Below, piece after piece: positions 3,176 to 62,204 of a stretch of 64,000 nt of DNA. Source of the DNA: Candidatus Omnitrophota bacterium (GTDB lineage: Bacteria; Omnitrophota; Gorgyraeia; Duberdicusellales; 4484-171); assembly GCA_041652815.1 (NCBI GenBank), contig JBAZGN010000005.1, positions 99,651 through 163,650 on the forward strand, written 5' to 3'. The position numbers were made by a program, and so were the translations under genes. Every line of letters begins with the position of its first letter. Within the stretch, counting starts at the first letter, position 1. A model generated the notes under the pieces. The model was not told where the DNA came from and searched no databases. It saw nothing but the letters and a program-made list of their open reading frames with translations.

Positions 3176-3817
3176 ATGATTGAAAAGAAGTTCTTTATAT
3201 TTGATTTAGATGGGACTTTAGCTGATGCTTACAGGGCTATAGAGAAAAGCCTTAATTTTACGCTGAATAAGCTTGGGTTTTCCAAGGTAAGCTACAAGGA
3301 AGCGAAACAAAAAGTAGGTAGGGGGGATAAAATATTTATGGAAACGTTTTTTCCCCCTGAAGCAATAAAACAAGCTCTTGGTATATATCGCCGGCATCAT
3401 AAGGGTGCGCTTAGAATGTTCTCTAAGCTAAGGCCGCATGCAAGATGGATGCTTAAGCAATTAAAGCGTAAAGGAAAATTGACTGCTATTGCTTCCAACC
3501 GGCCGAGCTATTTTACTAATTTGATTTTAACAACACTTGGTATAAAAAAATATTTTAACATGGTTTTGTGCGCGGATGAGGTTAGGAGCAATAAACCGAA
3601 CCCAAAAATATTAAATGTTTTGATAAAAAAATTAAACGTTGCCAGGGGGGAAACTGTATTTATTGGAGATATGGACATAGATTTAGAAACAGCAAAACGT
3701 GCCAACATTGATGTTGTCTTTATAAAGGGGGGATCAAGCCGCCCGGCGGTTGCAGGTAAATATAAAAATGCGAAAGTAATTTCTTCGTTGAAAGAAATAC
3801 TGAAGTTATACGAATAG
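3176..3817 (+). CDS. HAD-superfamily hydrolase (phosphatase-like).
   Basis: FIFDLDGTLADA motif I, S/T motif II, K..GDMDID motif III/IV. Confidence 0.7.
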   Translation: MIEKKFFIFDLDGTLADAYRAIEKSLNFTLNKLGFSKVSYKEAKQKVGRGDKIFMETFFPPEAIKQALGIYRRHHKGALRMFSKLRPHARWMLKQLKRKGKLTAIASNRPSYFTNLILTTLGIKKYFNMVLCADEVRSNKPNPKILNVLIKKLNVARGETVFIGDMDIDLETAKRANIDVVFIKGGSSRPAVAGKYKNAKVISSLKEILKLYE

Positions 3818-3855
3818 CTTGTTTACTGTATATACCCCTTGCGTCCAGATACCAG

Positions 3856-3897
3856 GGGCTACGGGGTTAAGTCTCCGCCTACGGCGGAGAATTAAGG
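3856..3897. repeat. Family H module (GGGGTTAA-N3-TCCGCCTACGGCGGA-G-AATTAAGGAG) that carries the RBS of the downstream gene.
   Basis: Near-identical module at 47786-47830, also directly before a start codon. Confidence 0.5.
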
Positions 3898-3904
3898 AGT
3901 ATAA

Positions 3905-6900
3905 ATGGACAAGGACTATATGCTTCGCGATGATGGAAGTTTTATTATAAAGAATTATAACAGCAAACATCCATTTTCAAATTTTCTTCCCGGCGTAGCC
4001 GGTGCCTGGGGAGTACCGATGTGGGTTTTTTACGTAAACCGGGCACAGGGAGTTATAAGTTTCGGAGTCAAAGATAAAGATCACGCTATAACCGAATTTT
4101 TCCCGGCGAATAATGCTTATTGTTTTGCGCCGCTTGTAGGCTTTCGTACATTCCTCAAGATAAACGATAAAATTAATTATGAGCCATTTCGTGTAATTTC
4201 AGATTATGAACGTAACGAGGAGATGGTTATAAAAAGCTCATCTTTCAGCATACGCAAAAATAATCCGGAACTTGGCCTTAATTTGCGTATTAAATATTTT
4301 ACGCTTCCAAATAGCGCTGCGGGGGCACTGGTACGTGTTTTATCCGTTAAAAATATTTCCGACAAGGAAATAAAGCTTGAGGTTTTAGACGGGTTACCCA
4401 AAATAATACCCTTTGGATTAAACAACGTGTTGCTCAAAGATTTAGCAAGGACTATGGAAGCATGGATGCGCGCTGAAGTTCATAATAACCTGGCATTCTT
4501 CCGTATGATTGTTGACCCCAAAGATTCAAGCCAGACAAAATATATTGATGGCGCTAATTTCGAATACGCTTTTTATGAAGAAAACGGTAAAAAGGTATCA
4601 CCTTATATAATAGTAGACCCTACTGCAATTTTTGCGCAGGATACTTCCTATTCTGTTCCAGTTAATTTTTATGCAAGCAGTTTCAAAACTCCACTTACAC
4701 AAATTATGGCAGGGAAAACCCCGTGCGCTTTTAACCATTTTACATGGAGTATTCTACCGGGAGAGGTTAAAATATTTTACAGTATGTTTGGTTCTTCTTT
4801 TAAATCGCAGCTTATCAAAGATTTTGTTTCGGGAATAGATGCTAACTTTTTAAAAGAAAAAGAAAAAGAAAATAAAAGTATTATTGAAAATATTAAAGAT
4901 AATTGTTTTTCTGTATGTTCTTCAGACAGGCTGAAAGAGTATGTGAAATGTACTTATCTGGATAATGTTTTGCGCGGCGGTTACCCTTATAAATTTACGG
5001 ATAAAAACAGTTACTATATTTTTTCCCGCAAGCATGGTGACCTGGAAAGAGATTATAATAAGTTTAAGTTACTACCTTCCTATTTTAGTGAGGGCGAGGC
5101 AAATTATCGTGATATAAACCAGAACCGCAGGGTAGATTTATTCTTCAATCCGTCCCTTGGAAAATCAAATATAGTGTATTTCCTAAACCTCATAAAGATT
5201 GACGGATATAATCCGCTGGTAGTAAAAGGCGAAAGGCTGTTTTTTAACCAGGCAGCAGCGCGTAATCTATTAAAACAATTCGGTATAGCTGATAAAAAAA
5301 TAATTTCTCTGATGGTTTCAGGCTTTCATCTTGGTGATTTCTTTAAAATCCTTAAAGAAGAAGGTATTGTTGTCAAGGCGCGAGAAAAATTAGCCGCGGA
5401 ATTAGTTACGAAAGCGCAAAGAGAGCCTCAGGCAACTCATGGCGAAGGGTACTGGATAGATCATTGGCGCTATAACCTTGATTTAATCGAAAACTTCCTT
5501 TATTTTTATCCCGATAAATTAGATGACCTGTTTTTAACCAAGGAATATTATTTTTGGGATGATGAGTGGCGCGTTAAGGAACGCAGCCATCGTTTCCATT
5601 TAAAAGATGGTAAGGTTTACCAGTGGCACTCTGTTGAAGAAGTGGGAGAGAAAAAAGATGTTATAGCTTCGCGCGCAAAATTCGCTAATTTTCTGCGTGA
5701 TAAAAAAGGAAATATTTATACTACAAGCCTTATAGAAAAACTTTTAACTCTTATTCTCAATAAAGCTGCGACTTTAGATCCTGATGGTGTAGGCGTTGAA
5801 ATGGAGGCGGATAAACCAGGCTGGTGCGATTCTCTAAATGGCCTTCCTGCTCTTTTTGGCTCTTCAATATGCGAAACTTTTGAATTAAAGCGCGCCTGCC
5901 TTTTGCTGAGTGAAGCAGCATCAGCTTTAAACAAAAAAGGTACAGCTAATTTTAATTTGGCAGAGGAAGTGTATGAATTTTTAGAAGGGCTTGAAGGGCT
6001 GACTAAGAAATACTCTAACCTGCCGGCAAAACAGCGTGATATGTTCTGGTGGGAAAAATCCAATTCCCTGAAGGAAAGTTTCCGGAAAACAACTTTTGCG
6101 CAGATTAAAGGCAAACAGATAAGCATTCCCGGCCTGCGGCTAGAAAAATTCTTAAATTCGCTGGTTAATAAATTGGATAACGGTATCGAAAAAGCTCTGG
6201 ACAGGGATACAGGAATTTATTCTACGTATTTTAAGTATAGCGTAGAAAAATTTCATGCCAAAGGAAAAATAATTAAGCCGCTTAAGTTTAAAAAAGAGCC
6301 TCTCGCGCATTTCTTGGAAGGTTCGGTTCATGCTCTACGCACGCAAAAAGAAAGTTCTATTTATAGTGCGTTAAAGAAAACAGTTATTTTCGATAAAGTA
6401 TTACGGATGTACCGTCTCAACGCGTCTTTAGAAAAAGAACCTCTTGAAATTGGAAGAAGCAGGATTTTTACACCGGGCTGGCTTGAGAATGAATCCATCT
6501 GGCTGCATATGGAATACAAATACCTTTTGGAAGTGCTTAAAAAAGGTTTGTATGAAGAATTCTACGAAGATTTTCATAATTGCGCGGTATGTTTCTTCGA
6601 CGCGCAAAAATACGGAAGAAATATCCTGGAAAACTCTTCTTTTATTGTAAGCAGCGCTAATTGCGATAAAAATTTATGGAACAAAGGTTTTGTCGCGCGC
6701 TTAAGCGGTGCAACTGTTGAGCTCCTGAATATGTGGATTGTAATGTGCCTGGGTAAGTCGCCATTTAATATTAACGGTAATGGCGAACTAACTCTTAAAT
6801 TTTCCCCTATTCTCAAGTCAGAGCTTTTTACCAAGCAGGAGCAGAAAATCGAATTTAGAGGCAAAAGCGAGATTATTGAAAAAGATTGTTTCGCTTTCAA

Positions 6901-9953: not shown

Positions 9954-10108
9954 TTATAGGTAAATATGGGTGAGGGTAGAAAAACTTTCGGTCCAACAAA
10001 TAAAAAATATTGTGACCTTCACAAGAAATCGTCCCGCTGCAGAAAAGGAAAAAAGAAATAGCCGCTTTCAATTTCATAGTTTTTTAAATAAATCTATCCT
10101 TATTGTTC

Positions 10109-27436: not shown

Positions 27437-27496
27437 AGGTTAAGGCTAAGGTTGAGGTTAAGGATTAATTTAGCTTCAACCTAAACTTTTATAACT

Positions 27497-28477: not shown

Positions 28478-28490
28478 AACTAGAAGCGGA

Positions 28491-28572
28491 TATCCGCGGA
28501 TCTAAACGCGGATAAACGCCAGCGAGTTACCGTGCGTAAATCCGCGTAAATATCCGCGGCAATCCGCTTCTA
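28491..28572. repeat. Family B palindromic element (CCGCGGAT units, TAGAAGCGGAT...ATCCGCTTCTA termini), copy 1.
   Basis: Near-perfect inverted termini with internal CGCGGAT repeats. Shared with 35144-35234 and 41299-41390. Confidence 0.75.
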
Positions 28573-29293: not shown

Positions 29294-29298
29294 AATGT

Positions 29299-29560
29299 CG
29301 GTTACGTTAAACGGTTACGTAACTCGTTACGGTTGCGTTTGACGTAAAACGTTATGGAAGATAAAAAACCTATACGAAGTTTCCATGATTTAGATGATAC
29401 AATGACAAAATCCAACGAAACAATTACTTATGACAAAATTAGTAAGCAGTGTTACAATCTAGCAATTGCCTAGGATAAATTTAACGAACGTAATCCGGGA
29501 CGCAACCGATAGACGATAGACGAAACGGGTCGCGCAACCGTTTTACGAAAAACGCAACCA
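29299..29560. repeat. Family A' composite element (GGTTACG / GGTTGCG / TTTTACGTAAAACG arms) with a ~125-bp internal segment.
   Basis: Arms are related to 34658-34785 (GGTTGCGTTTTACGTAAAACG ... CGATAGACGAAACG..GCGCAACCG). Confidence 0.6.
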
Positions 29561-29561
29561 T

Positions 29562-33652: not shown

Positions 33653-33730
33653 TCACAGACAAGAAATCACAGATGATCGCAGATAAAATCATCTGTGATC
33701 ATCCGCTTACAAATCTGTGCTAATCTGTGT
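33644..33730. repeat. Family C palindromic element, copy 3. It overlaps the trmD stop and precedes the rplS RBS.
   Basis: CACAGATGATCACAGA ... ATCTGTGATCATC...ATCTGTG. The TGA stop of trmD is inside the first unit. Confidence 0.7.
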
Positions 33731-34662: not shown

Positions 34663-34785
34663 CGAAGCAAATTGGTTGCGTCAAGCGGTTGCGGTTACGC
34701 GACTCGTCACGGTTGCGTTTTACGTAAAACGTCTAACGATAGACGAAACGAGCAGCGCAACCGATTCACGTAAGACGCAACCATT
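34658..34785. repeat. Family A' element, copy 2.
   Basis: GGTAACGAAG...GGTTGCGTTTTACGTAAAACG...CGATAGACGAAACG...GCGCAACCG, immediately after the rnhB stop. Confidence 0.6.
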
Positions 34786-34800
34786 AATCATCCTGAATAG

Positions 34801-35166
34801 ATGCAAAAAGGTAAGTTTTACGAAGATAAAGCGGCAAATTATCTGAAACTTAAAGGCTACAGTATCCTAAAAAGAAATTTTCGTTCTCCTTTCGGAGAGA
34901 TTGATATTATCGCAACGGATGAGGGCTATATCTGTTTCATTGAAGTAAAAGCAAGAAATTATAATTATCTTGTATCCGGTAAAGAGGCAATAGATTTTAG
35001 AAAAATAGAAAAGATTAAAAAAACCGCTCTTTTTTACGCATCCGGTAATTTAGACAGGCTTTTTAGGTTCGATGTCCTGGAGATAATCCAGGGCAAGGAT
35101 TTTCGTGAATATAACCTCATAAAAGGAGCGTTTGATTGTAGCGTAGAAGCGGATAGCCGCGGATAG
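34801..35166 (+). CDS. yraN: YraN-family (UPF0102) endonuclease-like protein.
   Basis: GE.DIIA...FIEVKAR restriction-endonuclease-like core; conserved rnhB-yraN adjacency. The last ~7 codons are supplied by the family B element. Confidence 0.7.
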   Translation: MQKGKFYEDKAANYLKLKGYSILKRNFRSPFGEIDIIATDEGYICFIEVKARNYNYLVSGKEAIDFRKIEKIKKTALFYASGNLDRLFRFDVLEIIQGKDFREYNLIKGAFDCSVEADSRG

Positions 35167-35234
35167 CAACGCGGATTTACGCAAGCGAATTGTGGGCGGT
35201 TATCCGCGTCAATATCCGCGGTAATCCGCTTCTA
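35144..35234. repeat. Family B palindromic element, copy 2.
   Basis: TAGAAGCGGATAGCCGCGGAT ... ATATCCGCGGTAATCCGCTTCTA. Confidence 0.75.
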
Positions 35235-41298: not shown

Positions 41299-41390
41299 TA
41301 GAAGCGGATACACGCGGATTTATACGCGGATAAACGCCAGCGAGTTCGCTTGCGTGAATCCGCGTCAATATCCGCGGATATCCGCTTCTA
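41299..41390. repeat. Family B palindromic element, copy 3.
   Basis: TAGAAGCGGATACACGCGGAT ... ATCCGCGGATATCCGCTTCTA, between guaA and dnaE. Confidence 0.75.
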
Positions 41391-46263: not shown

Positions 46264-46290
46264 CGTACCTAATTATCTATATCAATTTTA

Positions 46291-46432
46291 GGTTACGAAG
46301 GTTACGAAGGCCAACAGGCCACCCTGTTGGGTAGGTTACGAATGTTACAATAAATCAAGTGATTTAAATGTAACCTTCGTAACTTCCGTAACCTGCCTGC
46401 CGGCAGGCAGGCATCCGTAACCTTCGTAACCT
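46291..46432. repeat. Family A palindromic element (GGTTACGAA arrays in inverted orientation with inner GC hairpins).
   Basis: TAGGTTACGAAGGTTACGAAGG ... TGTAACCTTCGTAACTTCCGTAACC ... CCGTAACCTTCGTAACC. Inner hairpins are CCAACAGG-CCAC-CCTGTTGG and CCTGCCTGCC-GGCAGGCAGG. Confidence 0.75.
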
Positions 46433-46473
46433 AAATTGTAATTCGTGGCAATTCGTCTTTAAAAAGAACCACC

Positions 46474-51077: not shown

Positions 51078-51096
51078 AAAAATATTTTGATATTCA

Positions 51097-51202
51097 GGTT
51101 ACGAAAGTTACGAAGGTTACGCAGGTTACGAATGTTACAATAAATCAAGTGTTTCAAGTGTAACTTTCGTAACATTCGTAACTTCCCGTAACATCCGTAA
51201 CC
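51097..51202. repeat. Family A long palindrome: five GGTTACGAA 9-mers, a ~25-nt centre, then five inverted 9-mers.
   Basis: GGTTACGAAAGTTACGAAGGTTACGCAGGTTACGAATGTTACA ... TGTAACTTTCGTAACATTCGTAACTTCCCGTAACATCCGTAACC. Confidence 0.8.
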
Positions 51203-51216
51203 TAAAAAAGGGACTT

Positions 51217-56050: not shown

Positions 56051-56059
56051 TTGATTAAA

Positions 56060-56210
56060 TAACCAAGCTCCAAGATACAATAACCAAACAATGACCAATA
56101 ATCAAATTCCAATAACCAAACGAAAAAGAATAAAACTGTTTGGTCATTGGTTATTGGATATTGGAATTTGTTTGTATCTTGTACCTTGGTTATTGGTTAT
56201 TTTATAAAGA
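56060..56210. repeat. Family F imperfect palindrome (CCAATAACCAAAC / GTTTGGTCATTGGTTATTGG units).
   Basis: ATAACCAAG...CCAATAACCAAAC - centre - GTTTGGTCATTGGTTATTGG...CCTTGGTTATTGGTTAT. Confidence 0.6.
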
Positions 56211-57395: not shown

Positions 57396-57410
57396 AGAAT
57401 AAAGATAAAC

Positions 57411-57495
57411 AATAAATTTCTATCAATTTCATAATTTCTACCAATTTCAATTGCCGTTGAAATTCATAGAAATTCGCTTCGCGAAATTGGTTGAA
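57411..57495. repeat. Family E palindrome (AATTTC / GAAATT units).
   Basis: AATTTCTATCAATTTCATAATTTCTACCAATTTCAATTG ... TTGAAATTCATAGAAATTCGC..GCGAAATTGGTTGAAATTCATTG. Confidence 0.6.
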
Positions 57496-57539
57496 ATTCA
57501 TTGTTTAATAGGATATCTCTACTCATAAAGATATAAATT

Positions 57540-62137: not shown

Positions 62138-62151
62138 TTGAAAACATTAAT

Positions 62152-62204
62152 CACGAATTACCACGAATAAAACCGTTTCCCATTCGTGGTAATTCGTGAA
62201 TTCG
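62152..62204. repeat. Family D palindrome (CACGAAT / ATTCGTG units).
   Basis: TCACGAATTACCACGAAT - centre - ATTCGTGGTAATTCGTGAATTCG. A fragment ATTCGTGGCAATTCGTC is also at 46441-46457. Confidence 0.6.

Follow-up and report, generated by a model that had tools for sequence, protein, structure and literature searches.

Palindromic elements of 91-92 nt in operon spacers of an Omnitrophota genome are probably gene-less members of an intervening-sequence-like family that carries GxxExxY genes

Short palindromic elements with repeated units have been described in several bacterial settings. Intervening sequences (IVSs) interrupt rRNA genes in Leptospira, and Salmonella has IVSs of about 90-110 nt that lack an open reading frame (ORF). 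The Correia element of Neisseria is a miniature inverted-repeat transposable element (MITE) of about 100 bp with terminal inverted repeats (TIRs); it has many intergenic copies, is co-transcribed with its neighbors, and gives a hairpin RNA that is cut by RNase III. Repetitive extragenic palindromes (REPs) and the REP doublets forming hairpins (REPINs) are high-copy sequences with several families per genome, which lie between co-directional genes and affect mRNA stability. The heptamer repeats of cyanobacteria are named STRR (short tandemly repeated repetitive sequences). In this study, a palindromic element of 91-92 nt was investigated that occurs three times in a 64,000-nt stretch of a Candidatus Omnitrophota bacterium (GenBank assembly GCA_041652815.1, contig JBAZGN010000005.1, positions 99,651 to 163,650; hereafter the window, meaning the whole stretch). 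It is called Family B, a label taken from a first-pass annotation of the same DNA.

The closest described system is the IVS in helix 45 of the 23S rRNA gene of Coxiella burnetii, a selfish element of 428 nt with inverted repeats and an S23p ORF (PMC4990558). Upstream of the ATG of this ORF stand AGAAGA, three GACAGAT heptamers and a degenerate GACAGAA; the number of repeats varies among strains, RNase III cuts the IVS out of the transcript, and where it came from and how it moves are unexplained (PMC4990558). The rRNA insertions of candidate phyla radiation (CPR) bacteria include 23S_rRNA_IVP ORFs (PMC11270868). Outside rRNA genes, arrays of heptamers have been reported: GGGAATC in Xanthomonas, with 70-75 convergent inverted pairs, and GGGGA(C/T)T in Nostoc/Anabaena (PMC4692102), as well as TAACTGA in Beggiatoaceae, cyanobacteria, and Bacteroidetes (PMC4679880).

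The three window copies are probably ORF-less members of an IVS-like family of palindromic insertion elements, the full form of which carries a gene with a nuclease fold, GxxExxY. Each copy consists of two converging arms. The polarity that reads ..GGAT-CTAAA-CGCGGAT-AAA-CGC..GCG-TAA-ATCCGCG-TAGAT.. is called the A form. The copies and their arms are as follows:

28481-28572, + strand: copy 1, 92 nt, in the spacer from the trpS stop (28477) to the scpA start (28586), with A-form polarity on the + strand
28481-28519, + strand: copy 1 left arm, TAGAAGCGGAT-ATC-CGCGGAT-CTAAA-CGCGGAT-AAA-CGC
28534-28572, + strand: copy 1 right arm, GCG-TAA-ATCCGCG-TAAAT-ATCCGCG-GCA-ATCCGCTTCTA
35144-35234, + strand: copy 2, 91 nt, between yraN (UPF0102) and a cyclodeaminase gene (start 35250)
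35144-35176, + strand: copy 2 left arm, from an inverted-repeat search
35202-35234, + strand: copy 2 right arm, from an inverted-repeat search
41299-41390, + strand: copy 3, 92 nt, in the spacer from the guaA stop (41295) to the likely dnaE start (ATG 41408)
41299-41343, + strand: copy 3 left arm, from an inverted-repeat search
41346-41390, + strand: copy 3 right arm, from an inverted-repeat search

All three copies have perfect 11-nt ends, with TAGAAGCGGAT at the left and its exact reverse complement ATCCGCTTCTA at the right. The six exact matches of TAGAAGCGGAT in the 64 kb amount to one per end of each copy; allowing up to one mismatch raises the count to 7, where 1.43 would be expected, and none of 100 shuffles reached 7. 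CGCGGAT occurs 19 times in the window (5.4 expected), and 14 of these occurrences fall inside the three copies. The copies are 79-88% identical to each other in pairwise comparison, their flanks are unrelated, and the likeness stops at the element ends. Their GC content is 52-54% versus 39% for the window. Each copy sits in a spacer of + strand ORFs and ends 13-17 nt ahead of the next ATG. The first-pass annotation had described three palindromes with perfect 11-nt TIRs at trpS|scpA, yraN|cyclodeaminase, and guaA|dnaE and a GC content far above background, all of which was confirmed. It had placed the starts of copies 2 and 3 correctly at 35144 and 41299, but its start for copy 1, 28491, coincides with the final base of the left terminal repeat and lies 10 nt too far in.

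The element also contributes coding sequence to its neighbors. As had been proposed, the yraN ORF (34801-35166) reads through into copy 2: it terminates ..GAFDCS-VEADSRG*, and its last 7 codons and stop are the first 23 nt of the copy, while the tail in relatives without the element is ..GAFDVSENF* or ..GAFDCTDSEY*. In the A form, every frame of the left arm has a stop in copies 1 and 2; copy 3 is without one in frame 2. In the metagenome locus L198, the first TAG of an element (9954-9956) doubles as the stop codon of the upstream mnmE.

Across the family, the arm is laid out as TAGAAG-CGGAT, N3, CGCGGAT, N5, CGCGGAT, N3, CGC. The arms of the window copies have about three (A/C)GCGGAT units, and those of the family as a whole have three to four C(G/N)C(G/N)GAT heptamers. 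The units are 7 nt long and stand 10-12 nt apart with variable spacers of 3-5 nt between them; they are not repeated head to tail. Thus, the CGCGGAT repeats of the first-pass annotation are real, but they are spaced, not tandem, and they are not palindromic in themselves: the CCGCGG palindrome arises only where a spacer ends in C or begins with G, and 20 of 35 aligned copies have C-G at this pair. In these 35 copies, which come from many genomes, the units and ends are near-invariant and the spacers vary. The spacers of the left and right arms are not complementary, which gives the element an intrinsic polarity. Its inverted arms would close it into one long interrupted stem, and in prediction each window copy, on either strand, folds into one long interrupted hairpin (-53 to -61 kcal/mol, z -9 to -10.6; for the + strand, -54 to -60 kcal/mol and z about -10). 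When 31 arm pairs were compared over the 35 aligned copies, 95% of the cells were a standard pair; compensatory changes were few, such as C-G to A-U in 8 copies.

The ends of the element read TA...TA. In 39 copies, the base ahead of the element is A in 24 and the base after it is T in 27, and the flanks have no direct repeat beyond the terminal TA. The GTAG head of REPs is absent, and the base ahead of TAG is G in just 6 of the 39. No terminator-like call was made at any of the three window copies, and no T-run follows the hairpins. A search of the whole window against Rfam at the gathering threshold returned only three tRNAs, and copy 1, searched at E values up to 10, gave only a chance match to a miRNA precursor far below threshold. 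The first-pass annotation had considered that the repeat might be a known regulatory operator; no operator of a characterized factor and no Rfam family matches it. Some other candidates were rejected. A resemblance to the DnaA box (TTATCCGCG vs TTATCCACA) was judged coincidental, because the copies lie in operon spacers and the cumulative GC skew rises monotonically over the window. A CRISPR array and an integron attC site were dismissed as well, there being no regular array, spacer-repeat pattern, or integrase context.

A scan with the pattern TAGAAGCGGATNNNCGCGGAT was performed over one genome per species to investigate the distribution of the arms. At least 112 stretches were found in metagenome-assembled genomes (MAGs) labelled as Omnitrophota (many, chiefly SO_2017_LW3_58), numerous Patescibacteria/CPR lineages, Elusimicrobia, 'Planctomycetia', Bacteroidota, and others; by our own estimate, about 17 random matches are expected for 18 specified bases in the scanned collection, and some of the matches in high-GC genomes may be chance. 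The element is dispersed, multi-copy, and intergenic, as the first-pass annotation expected, and not confined to a single locus. The same kind of scan gave no match in the viral contigs of IMG/VR. The density is three copies in the 64 kb of the window; nine arms in eight loci of relatives (54 kb), six of them in a single 20-kb locus, included because it has a GxxExxY gene; and 58 arms in 22 loci (135 kb) of one Omnitrophota MAG, which had been selected for arms. These counts do not establish the hundreds of copies per genome that the first-pass annotation had extrapolated. The window is syntenic with SO_2017_LW3_58 at 76-78% nucleotide identity and with another Omnitrophota MAG at about 69%, and the closest named relatives of its proteins are Omnitrophota. 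The L198 contig occurs also in the ENA sample that holds the window's contig (ERZ27247363), and an ORF-less copy on it is 94.6% identical to copy 1. Near-identical element sequence is common to phyla with far more diverged housekeeping genes.

Some of the loci found in the scan have further features. In L016, L036, and L114, from CPR and Elusimicrobia MAGs, another widespread repeat (GTCAT(T/C)..CGAG..GAAG...) adjoins or sits within Family B arms. In L091, a Family B-like half element (3246-3266) lies about 60 nt upstream of the 5' end of a Saccharibacteria 16S rRNA gene, not inside it; this gene (3325-5962) spans 2.6 kb, about 1.1 kb beyond the model.

Comparison of gene junctions among related genomes indicates that the occupancy of individual sites changes. 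A metagenome scan with ScpA recovered 80 related loci. At trpS|scpA in L116 (ScpA 96% identical; about 270-318, with scpA at 319), flanks identical to those of copy 1 enclose a 22-nt mini-palindrome, TAGAAGCGGATATCCGCTTCTA, which is TAGAAGCGGAT|ATCCGCTTCTA; it equals copy 1 minus 70 nt, with the deletion between two ATCCGC direct repeats of 6 nt. Among five further strains with ScpA 94-96% identical (L117-L121), L119 is without a palindrome at this junction, and the other four have palindromes of like build with other units (GAATTTC, CACGAAT, CACAGAT). In more distant relatives, trpS and scpA abut. Similarly, infB|trpS and scpA|ruvB are gap-free (2 nt or ATGA overlap) in some close strains and hold palindromes with other units in others. 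The yraN|cyclodeaminase junction is empty in L210 and L211, one of which has proteins 93% identical (same sample, genes overlapping) and the other 83% identical. Syntenic Omnitrophota MAGs have Family B at scpA|ruvB (L112), or at infB|trpS and trpS|scpA (L103). Forms of 32 nt were found in L102 and L068 (3677-3708). The empty sites that the first-pass annotation had suggested looking for thus exist in relatives at yraN|cyclodeaminase. L116 and L121 also have a one-sided array of four AAAGACC heptamers, of a sister family with AAGACC units, which is flanked by (T/G)TGA..ATGA, an arrangement compatible with duplication of the ATGA overlap. On the contig of L120 (Ga0265297_10000450, 122 kb), ScpA is 95% identical to that of the window and the cyclodeaminase (P0133; 35250-35765 in the window) only 62%, suggesting very uneven divergence along the genome or a paralogous cyclodeaminase.

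A longer form of the element was recognized from the distance between converging arms. Among the matches listed, this distance is bimodal, with about 45 arm pairs at 77-92 nt, a few at 118-214 nt, and about 10 at 407-511 nt. The first class is gene-less, and the second has small inserts in the center. Nine of 12 examined pairs with arms 339-735 nt apart enclose a single ORF of 101-152 aa. Three representative ORFs were scanned and matched PF13366 (PDDEXK_3) at E values of 1e-28 to 1e-31, two of them also TIGR04256 'GxxExxY protein'; the remaining arm-enclosed ORFs were confirmed as GxxExxY by tblastn. Conversely, a tblastn search over about 730 kb of arm-containing loci located GxxExxY at 12 places, all of them between or adjoining arms save one at a contig edge. 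The association was tested independently with five GxxExxY proteins that a protein search had returned at 56-72% identity to the query and whose contigs were then fetched. All five genes are flanked on both sides by unit-repeat arms; that of L198 has exact Family B arms, and the other four have the diverged units CGCTGAT, GCTGAT, and ACNGAT. Furthermore, plasmid GxxExxY genes of the cultured Treponema saccharophilum and of a Fusobacteria isolate have flanking repeats of the CACGGAT/ATCCGTG type, which are inverted in the former and direct in the latter. No link between GxxExxY (PF13366, TIGR04256) and flanking arms was found in the literature, with incomplete search coverage.

The gene and the arms fit closely together. 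The ORF has a constant orientation, the sense of the A form; its ATG follows directly on unit 4 of the left arm, which reads TAGAAG-CGGAT..CGCGGAT..CGCGGAT..CGCnGA(A/T)-ATG in full elements, and its last codons (..R.SA) and TAA lie inside the right arm. An inner inverted repeat, CGCACAG..CTGTGCG, brackets the ORF and makes up the loop of gene-less copies. In the full element of L198 (9954-10432), the predicted fold pairs the arms around the ORF. The right arm of copy 1 (ACC GTG CGT AAA TCC GCG TAA) translates as TVRKSA*, resembling the C-termini of GxxExxY ORFs in full elements (..RxSA*). In 34 GxxExxY homologs, the PD..ExK residues (D69, E79, K81) are invariant. The AlphaFold model of the protein has a pLDDT of 90, and a fold search with it gave weak matches to PD-(D/E)XK proteins (alkaline and lambda exonuclease, Cas4, Hjc) at TM scores of 0.4-0.5; a PDB sequence search gave nothing significant. 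An insert of about 110 nt (..GGTAAGCTAATTTGTTT..) recurs at the center of Family B arms in SO_2017_LW3_58 and a relative (L015 217-422, L068 4836-5014, L037 2899-3102, L024 273-339).

These results suggest the following scheme. The full form would consist of the same arms around one GxxExxY gene of about 130 codons (PF13366, PD-(D/E)XK fold), and the 91-92-nt form may have been derived from it, with just the loop left between the arms. Family B and its sister families settle in the tiny spacers between co-directional genes, where they come and go as strains diverge, and the family is common to several phyla. The GxxExxY nuclease, or another factor that recognizes the repeated units, would move the element. 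On transcription of the operon, the arms may pair as in the rRNA IVSs; the resulting stem of about 31 bp would be a plausible substrate of RNase III, and for the host the likely outcome would therefore be a polycistronic mRNA that is cleaved or structurally punctuated between two genes.

Several points weigh against this scheme. The window copies lie outside rRNA, and RNase III cleavage is proposed for them by analogy. Neither a target-site duplication nor an exact breakpoint or movement event could be defined for Family B at yraN|cyclodeaminase or trpS|scpA; at the former, the filled and empty alleles are too diverged for placing the break. By tblastn, the window has no GxxExxY or 23S_rRNA_IVP gene, and GxxExxY is also absent from about 330 kb of the scpA loci of relatives, so that a supplier in trans is hypothetical for this genome. 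The literature gives no assigned function for GxxExxY/PDDEXK_3, and PD-(D/E)XK proteins of this size have no known role as transposases. The taxonomic labels of the MAGs, on which the spread across phyla depends, are those of the records and were taken as given. A strict sense-strand function of the RNA was rejected: relative to transcription, the element is found in the two orientations at 14 to 6 by our own tally (two-sided sign test by hand, p about 0.1), and this occurrence in both orientations with a weak, non-significant bias argues against it. Finally, the unrelated inserts at the center of some palindromes mean that the GxxExxY gene could be a later invader and not the parent.

The last point leads to the main rival explanation, in which the palindrome is primary, the 91-nt form is ancestral, and a homing-type GxxExxY gene invades the loop or cruciform tip, as some insertion sequences (ISs) do in REP loops. 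We consider this a serious possibility, though not a probable one. It would account for the variety of sequences in Family B centers (the insert of about 110 nt in one MAG, small hairpins, other repeats) and for the excess of ORF-less over ORF-bearing copies (about 45 vs about 10 in sampled arm pairs among the matches listed), and conserved catalytic residues, as seen in the GxxExxY sequences, would be expected of an active nuclease. However, an ORF that fills the whole inter-arm space, with its start abutting unit 4 and its last codons and stop in the right arm, looks like one of a set of co-evolved parts and not like a recent insertion. Its orientation is fixed relative to the polarity of the arms, and the GxxExxY genes of distant taxa have their own diverged arm versions. 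The proposal of the first-pass annotation, a MITE or REPIN of the classical kind for which a conventional transposase is supplied in trans from elsewhere in the genome (a REP-associated tyrosine transposase (RAYT) or IS200-like enzyme of the Y1 type, or a DDE enzyme), appears unlikely. The TIRs, the small size, the many dispersed intergenic copies, and the presence/absence polymorphism are all those of such elements, and the TA...TA ends, with A favored ahead and T after, are compatible with a TA target. Nevertheless, the cognate transposase was not found: no transposase, RAYT, or IS200-like gene was found near the arms in the 112 loci listed (about 730 kb), the 32 scanned arm-adjacent ORFs of at least 90 aa are ordinary housekeeping genes, no IS with Family B ends was seen in these loci, the GTAG head is missing, and GxxExxY is the only recurrent associated gene.

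Two further explanations do without present mobility, and both fit the data poorly. One is a module selected by the host, either a hairpin that processes or stabilizes mRNA or a binding array for a host protein, which is kept for operon expression and is now immobile. The constant location in co-directional spacers, 13-17 nt ahead of the next start codon in the window, would suit this idea, as would the very stable hairpins and the conservation of units with drifting spacers, which is expected of repeated protein-binding sites. On the other hand, occupancy of the junctions varies between close strains, some of which have no spacer at all, and the module is therefore dispensable at each site. 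It occurs in both orientations relative to transcription, no terminator-like T-run follows the hairpins, and its sequence is near-identical across phyla with far more diverged housekeeping genes. We regard a host module as quite improbable. The other explanation is growth at each site by replication slippage of heptamers and hairpin-templated repair, with no transfer between sites. Polymerase slippage has been invoked for heptamer arrays, which many bacteria have (PMC4692102, PMC4679880), the number of units varies in Family B (22-, 32-, and 77-92-nt forms), and the L116 remnant differs from copy 1 by a 70-nt deletion between 6-nt direct repeats. However, the same 11-nt end and the same spacer polarity recur at 80-95% identity at unrelated loci in different phyla, and the non-repeated spacers between units are not a product of simple slippage. 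Local growth is largely excluded, since the copies have non-repetitive parts in common, and we give it hardly any credence.

Family B is accompanied in the window by about ten more intergenic palindromes of like build with other units (CACAGAT, CACGAAT, GGTTACGAA, GGTTGCG/ACGTAA, AATTTC, CCAA, AGGTTAAGG), several of which are 88-90% identical to copies in other MAGs. The GGTTACGAA units at 46287 and 51093 are contiguous, unlike those of Family B. The positions are as follows:

2427-2493: further palindrome
27437-27490: further palindrome
33665-33700: further palindrome
34711-34782: further palindrome
46287-46435: further palindrome, GGTTACGAA units
51093-51206: further palindrome, GGTTACGAA units
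56058-56201: further palindrome
57406-57507: further palindrome
62151-62199: further palindrome
29294-29561: scpA|ruvB spacer, 268 nt, GGTTACG/ACGTAA-unit arms around an insert of about 130 nt

The insert in the scpA|ruvB spacer contains an ORF of 39 aa (MEDKKPIRSFHDL..) and a promoter-like ATGACA-17-TACAAT at 29430-29458. In close strains, scpA and ruvB overlap (ATGA) where the window has this 268-nt spacer. By eye, the 39-aa ORF was taken for a decayed four-helix-bundle gene; this idea was dropped, as there was no Pfam match. Genes of that kind were found within arms elsewhere. For example, a PF05635 23S_rRNA_IVP gene lies between AATTTC/GAAATT arms on a metagenome contig (L203, 12977-13345), and plasmid four-helix-bundle genes lie inside inverted heptamer arrays in Planktothrix (AATCGTA/AATCCCC), Nostoc (TTCAAAA), and Treponema (GGAAAGN) (L206, L208, and L209).

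No origin or function is generally accepted for the rRNA IVSs, for the heptamer arrays, or for the GxxExxY and four-helix-bundle proteins with their large sets of paralogs, although all three have been known for decades. The present data provide one anatomical frame for them, in which arms made of short units are inverted around an optional small ORF and derivatives without the gene occur. It is tempting, though speculative, to go further: GxxExxY proteins might be the nucleases of unrecognized, very small mobile elements whose ends are inverted arrays of the protein's short recognition unit, with the IVSs, many heptamer arrays, and the palindromes of about 90 nt in Omnitrophota and CPR bacteria as full or gene-less members of a single class. 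The four-helix-bundle '23S rRNA IVS' proteins would then possibly play a parallel role in the sister elements. The junctions of uncultured Omnitrophota offer turnover in real time, and a defined arm and a defined protein are now available as substrates for probing the role of GxxExxY. The elements also matter for annotation, as they hand stop codons and C-terminal tails to host genes such as yraN; as repeats they may break assemblies, and they probably punctuate operon transcripts.

Compared with the known systems, the first-pass assignment to a MITE, Correia, or REPIN type captured a dispersed palindrome with TIRs, but the GTAG head of REPs is missing and no RAYT was found in the 112 arm-containing loci. 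A REPIN is a doublet of REPs of 20-40 nt, whereas Family B is one unit of 91 nt and its associated gene encodes a PD-(D/E)XK protein located inside the element, with no RAYT near the arms; common to both are high-copy extragenic palindromes between co-directional genes. Like a MITE, Family B has perfect 11-nt TIRs, a length of 91-92 nt, no ORF, dispersed copies, and presence/absence polymorphism. No parent with a transposase and the same ends was found in the arm-containing loci, and the longer form encodes only the GxxExxY PD-(D/E)XK protein. Family B has no sequence relation to the Correia element, no parent IS with a transposase is known for it, no TA duplication could be demonstrated, and its arms are made of repeated units. 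The heptamer arrays share with it intergenic units of about 7 nt, often in converging pairs that can form hairpins, and a patchy phylogenetic spread; like Family B, they are without a known function or transfer mechanism. They are, however, contiguous simple-sequence repeats of many units, whereas the units of Family B are fixed in number and separated by variable spacers, its terminal motif and loop are unique, and it behaves as one discrete element of defined length.

In build, Family B is closer to the rRNA IVS (PMC4990558). Both have complementary terminal arms that form a long stem enclosing an optional small ORF, and in both an AGAAG motif precedes three heptamers of the C-A/G-GAT type (GACAGAT in Coxiella), with a final, degenerate unit just ahead of the ATG. 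The number of units varies (22, 32, and 77-92 nt in Family B), ORF-less and ORF-bearing forms occur, the ORF is prone to decay, and the sporadic distribution suggests horizontal transfer. There are also differences. IVSs are inserted in a helix of the 23S (helix 25 or 45) or 16S rRNA gene, and the three window copies lie between protein-coding ORFs; the cargo of Family B is GxxExxY (PF13366/TIGR04256) instead of the four-helix-bundle S23p/23S_rRNA_IVP; and the Family B units are separated by 3-5-nt spacers, whereas those of Coxiella are contiguous. Excision by RNase III has been demonstrated for IVSs, and by analogy the stem of Family B is a candidate substrate. In sum, the finding stays within known kinds, the IVSs, MITE-like palindromes, and heptamer arrays, and calls for no separate category.

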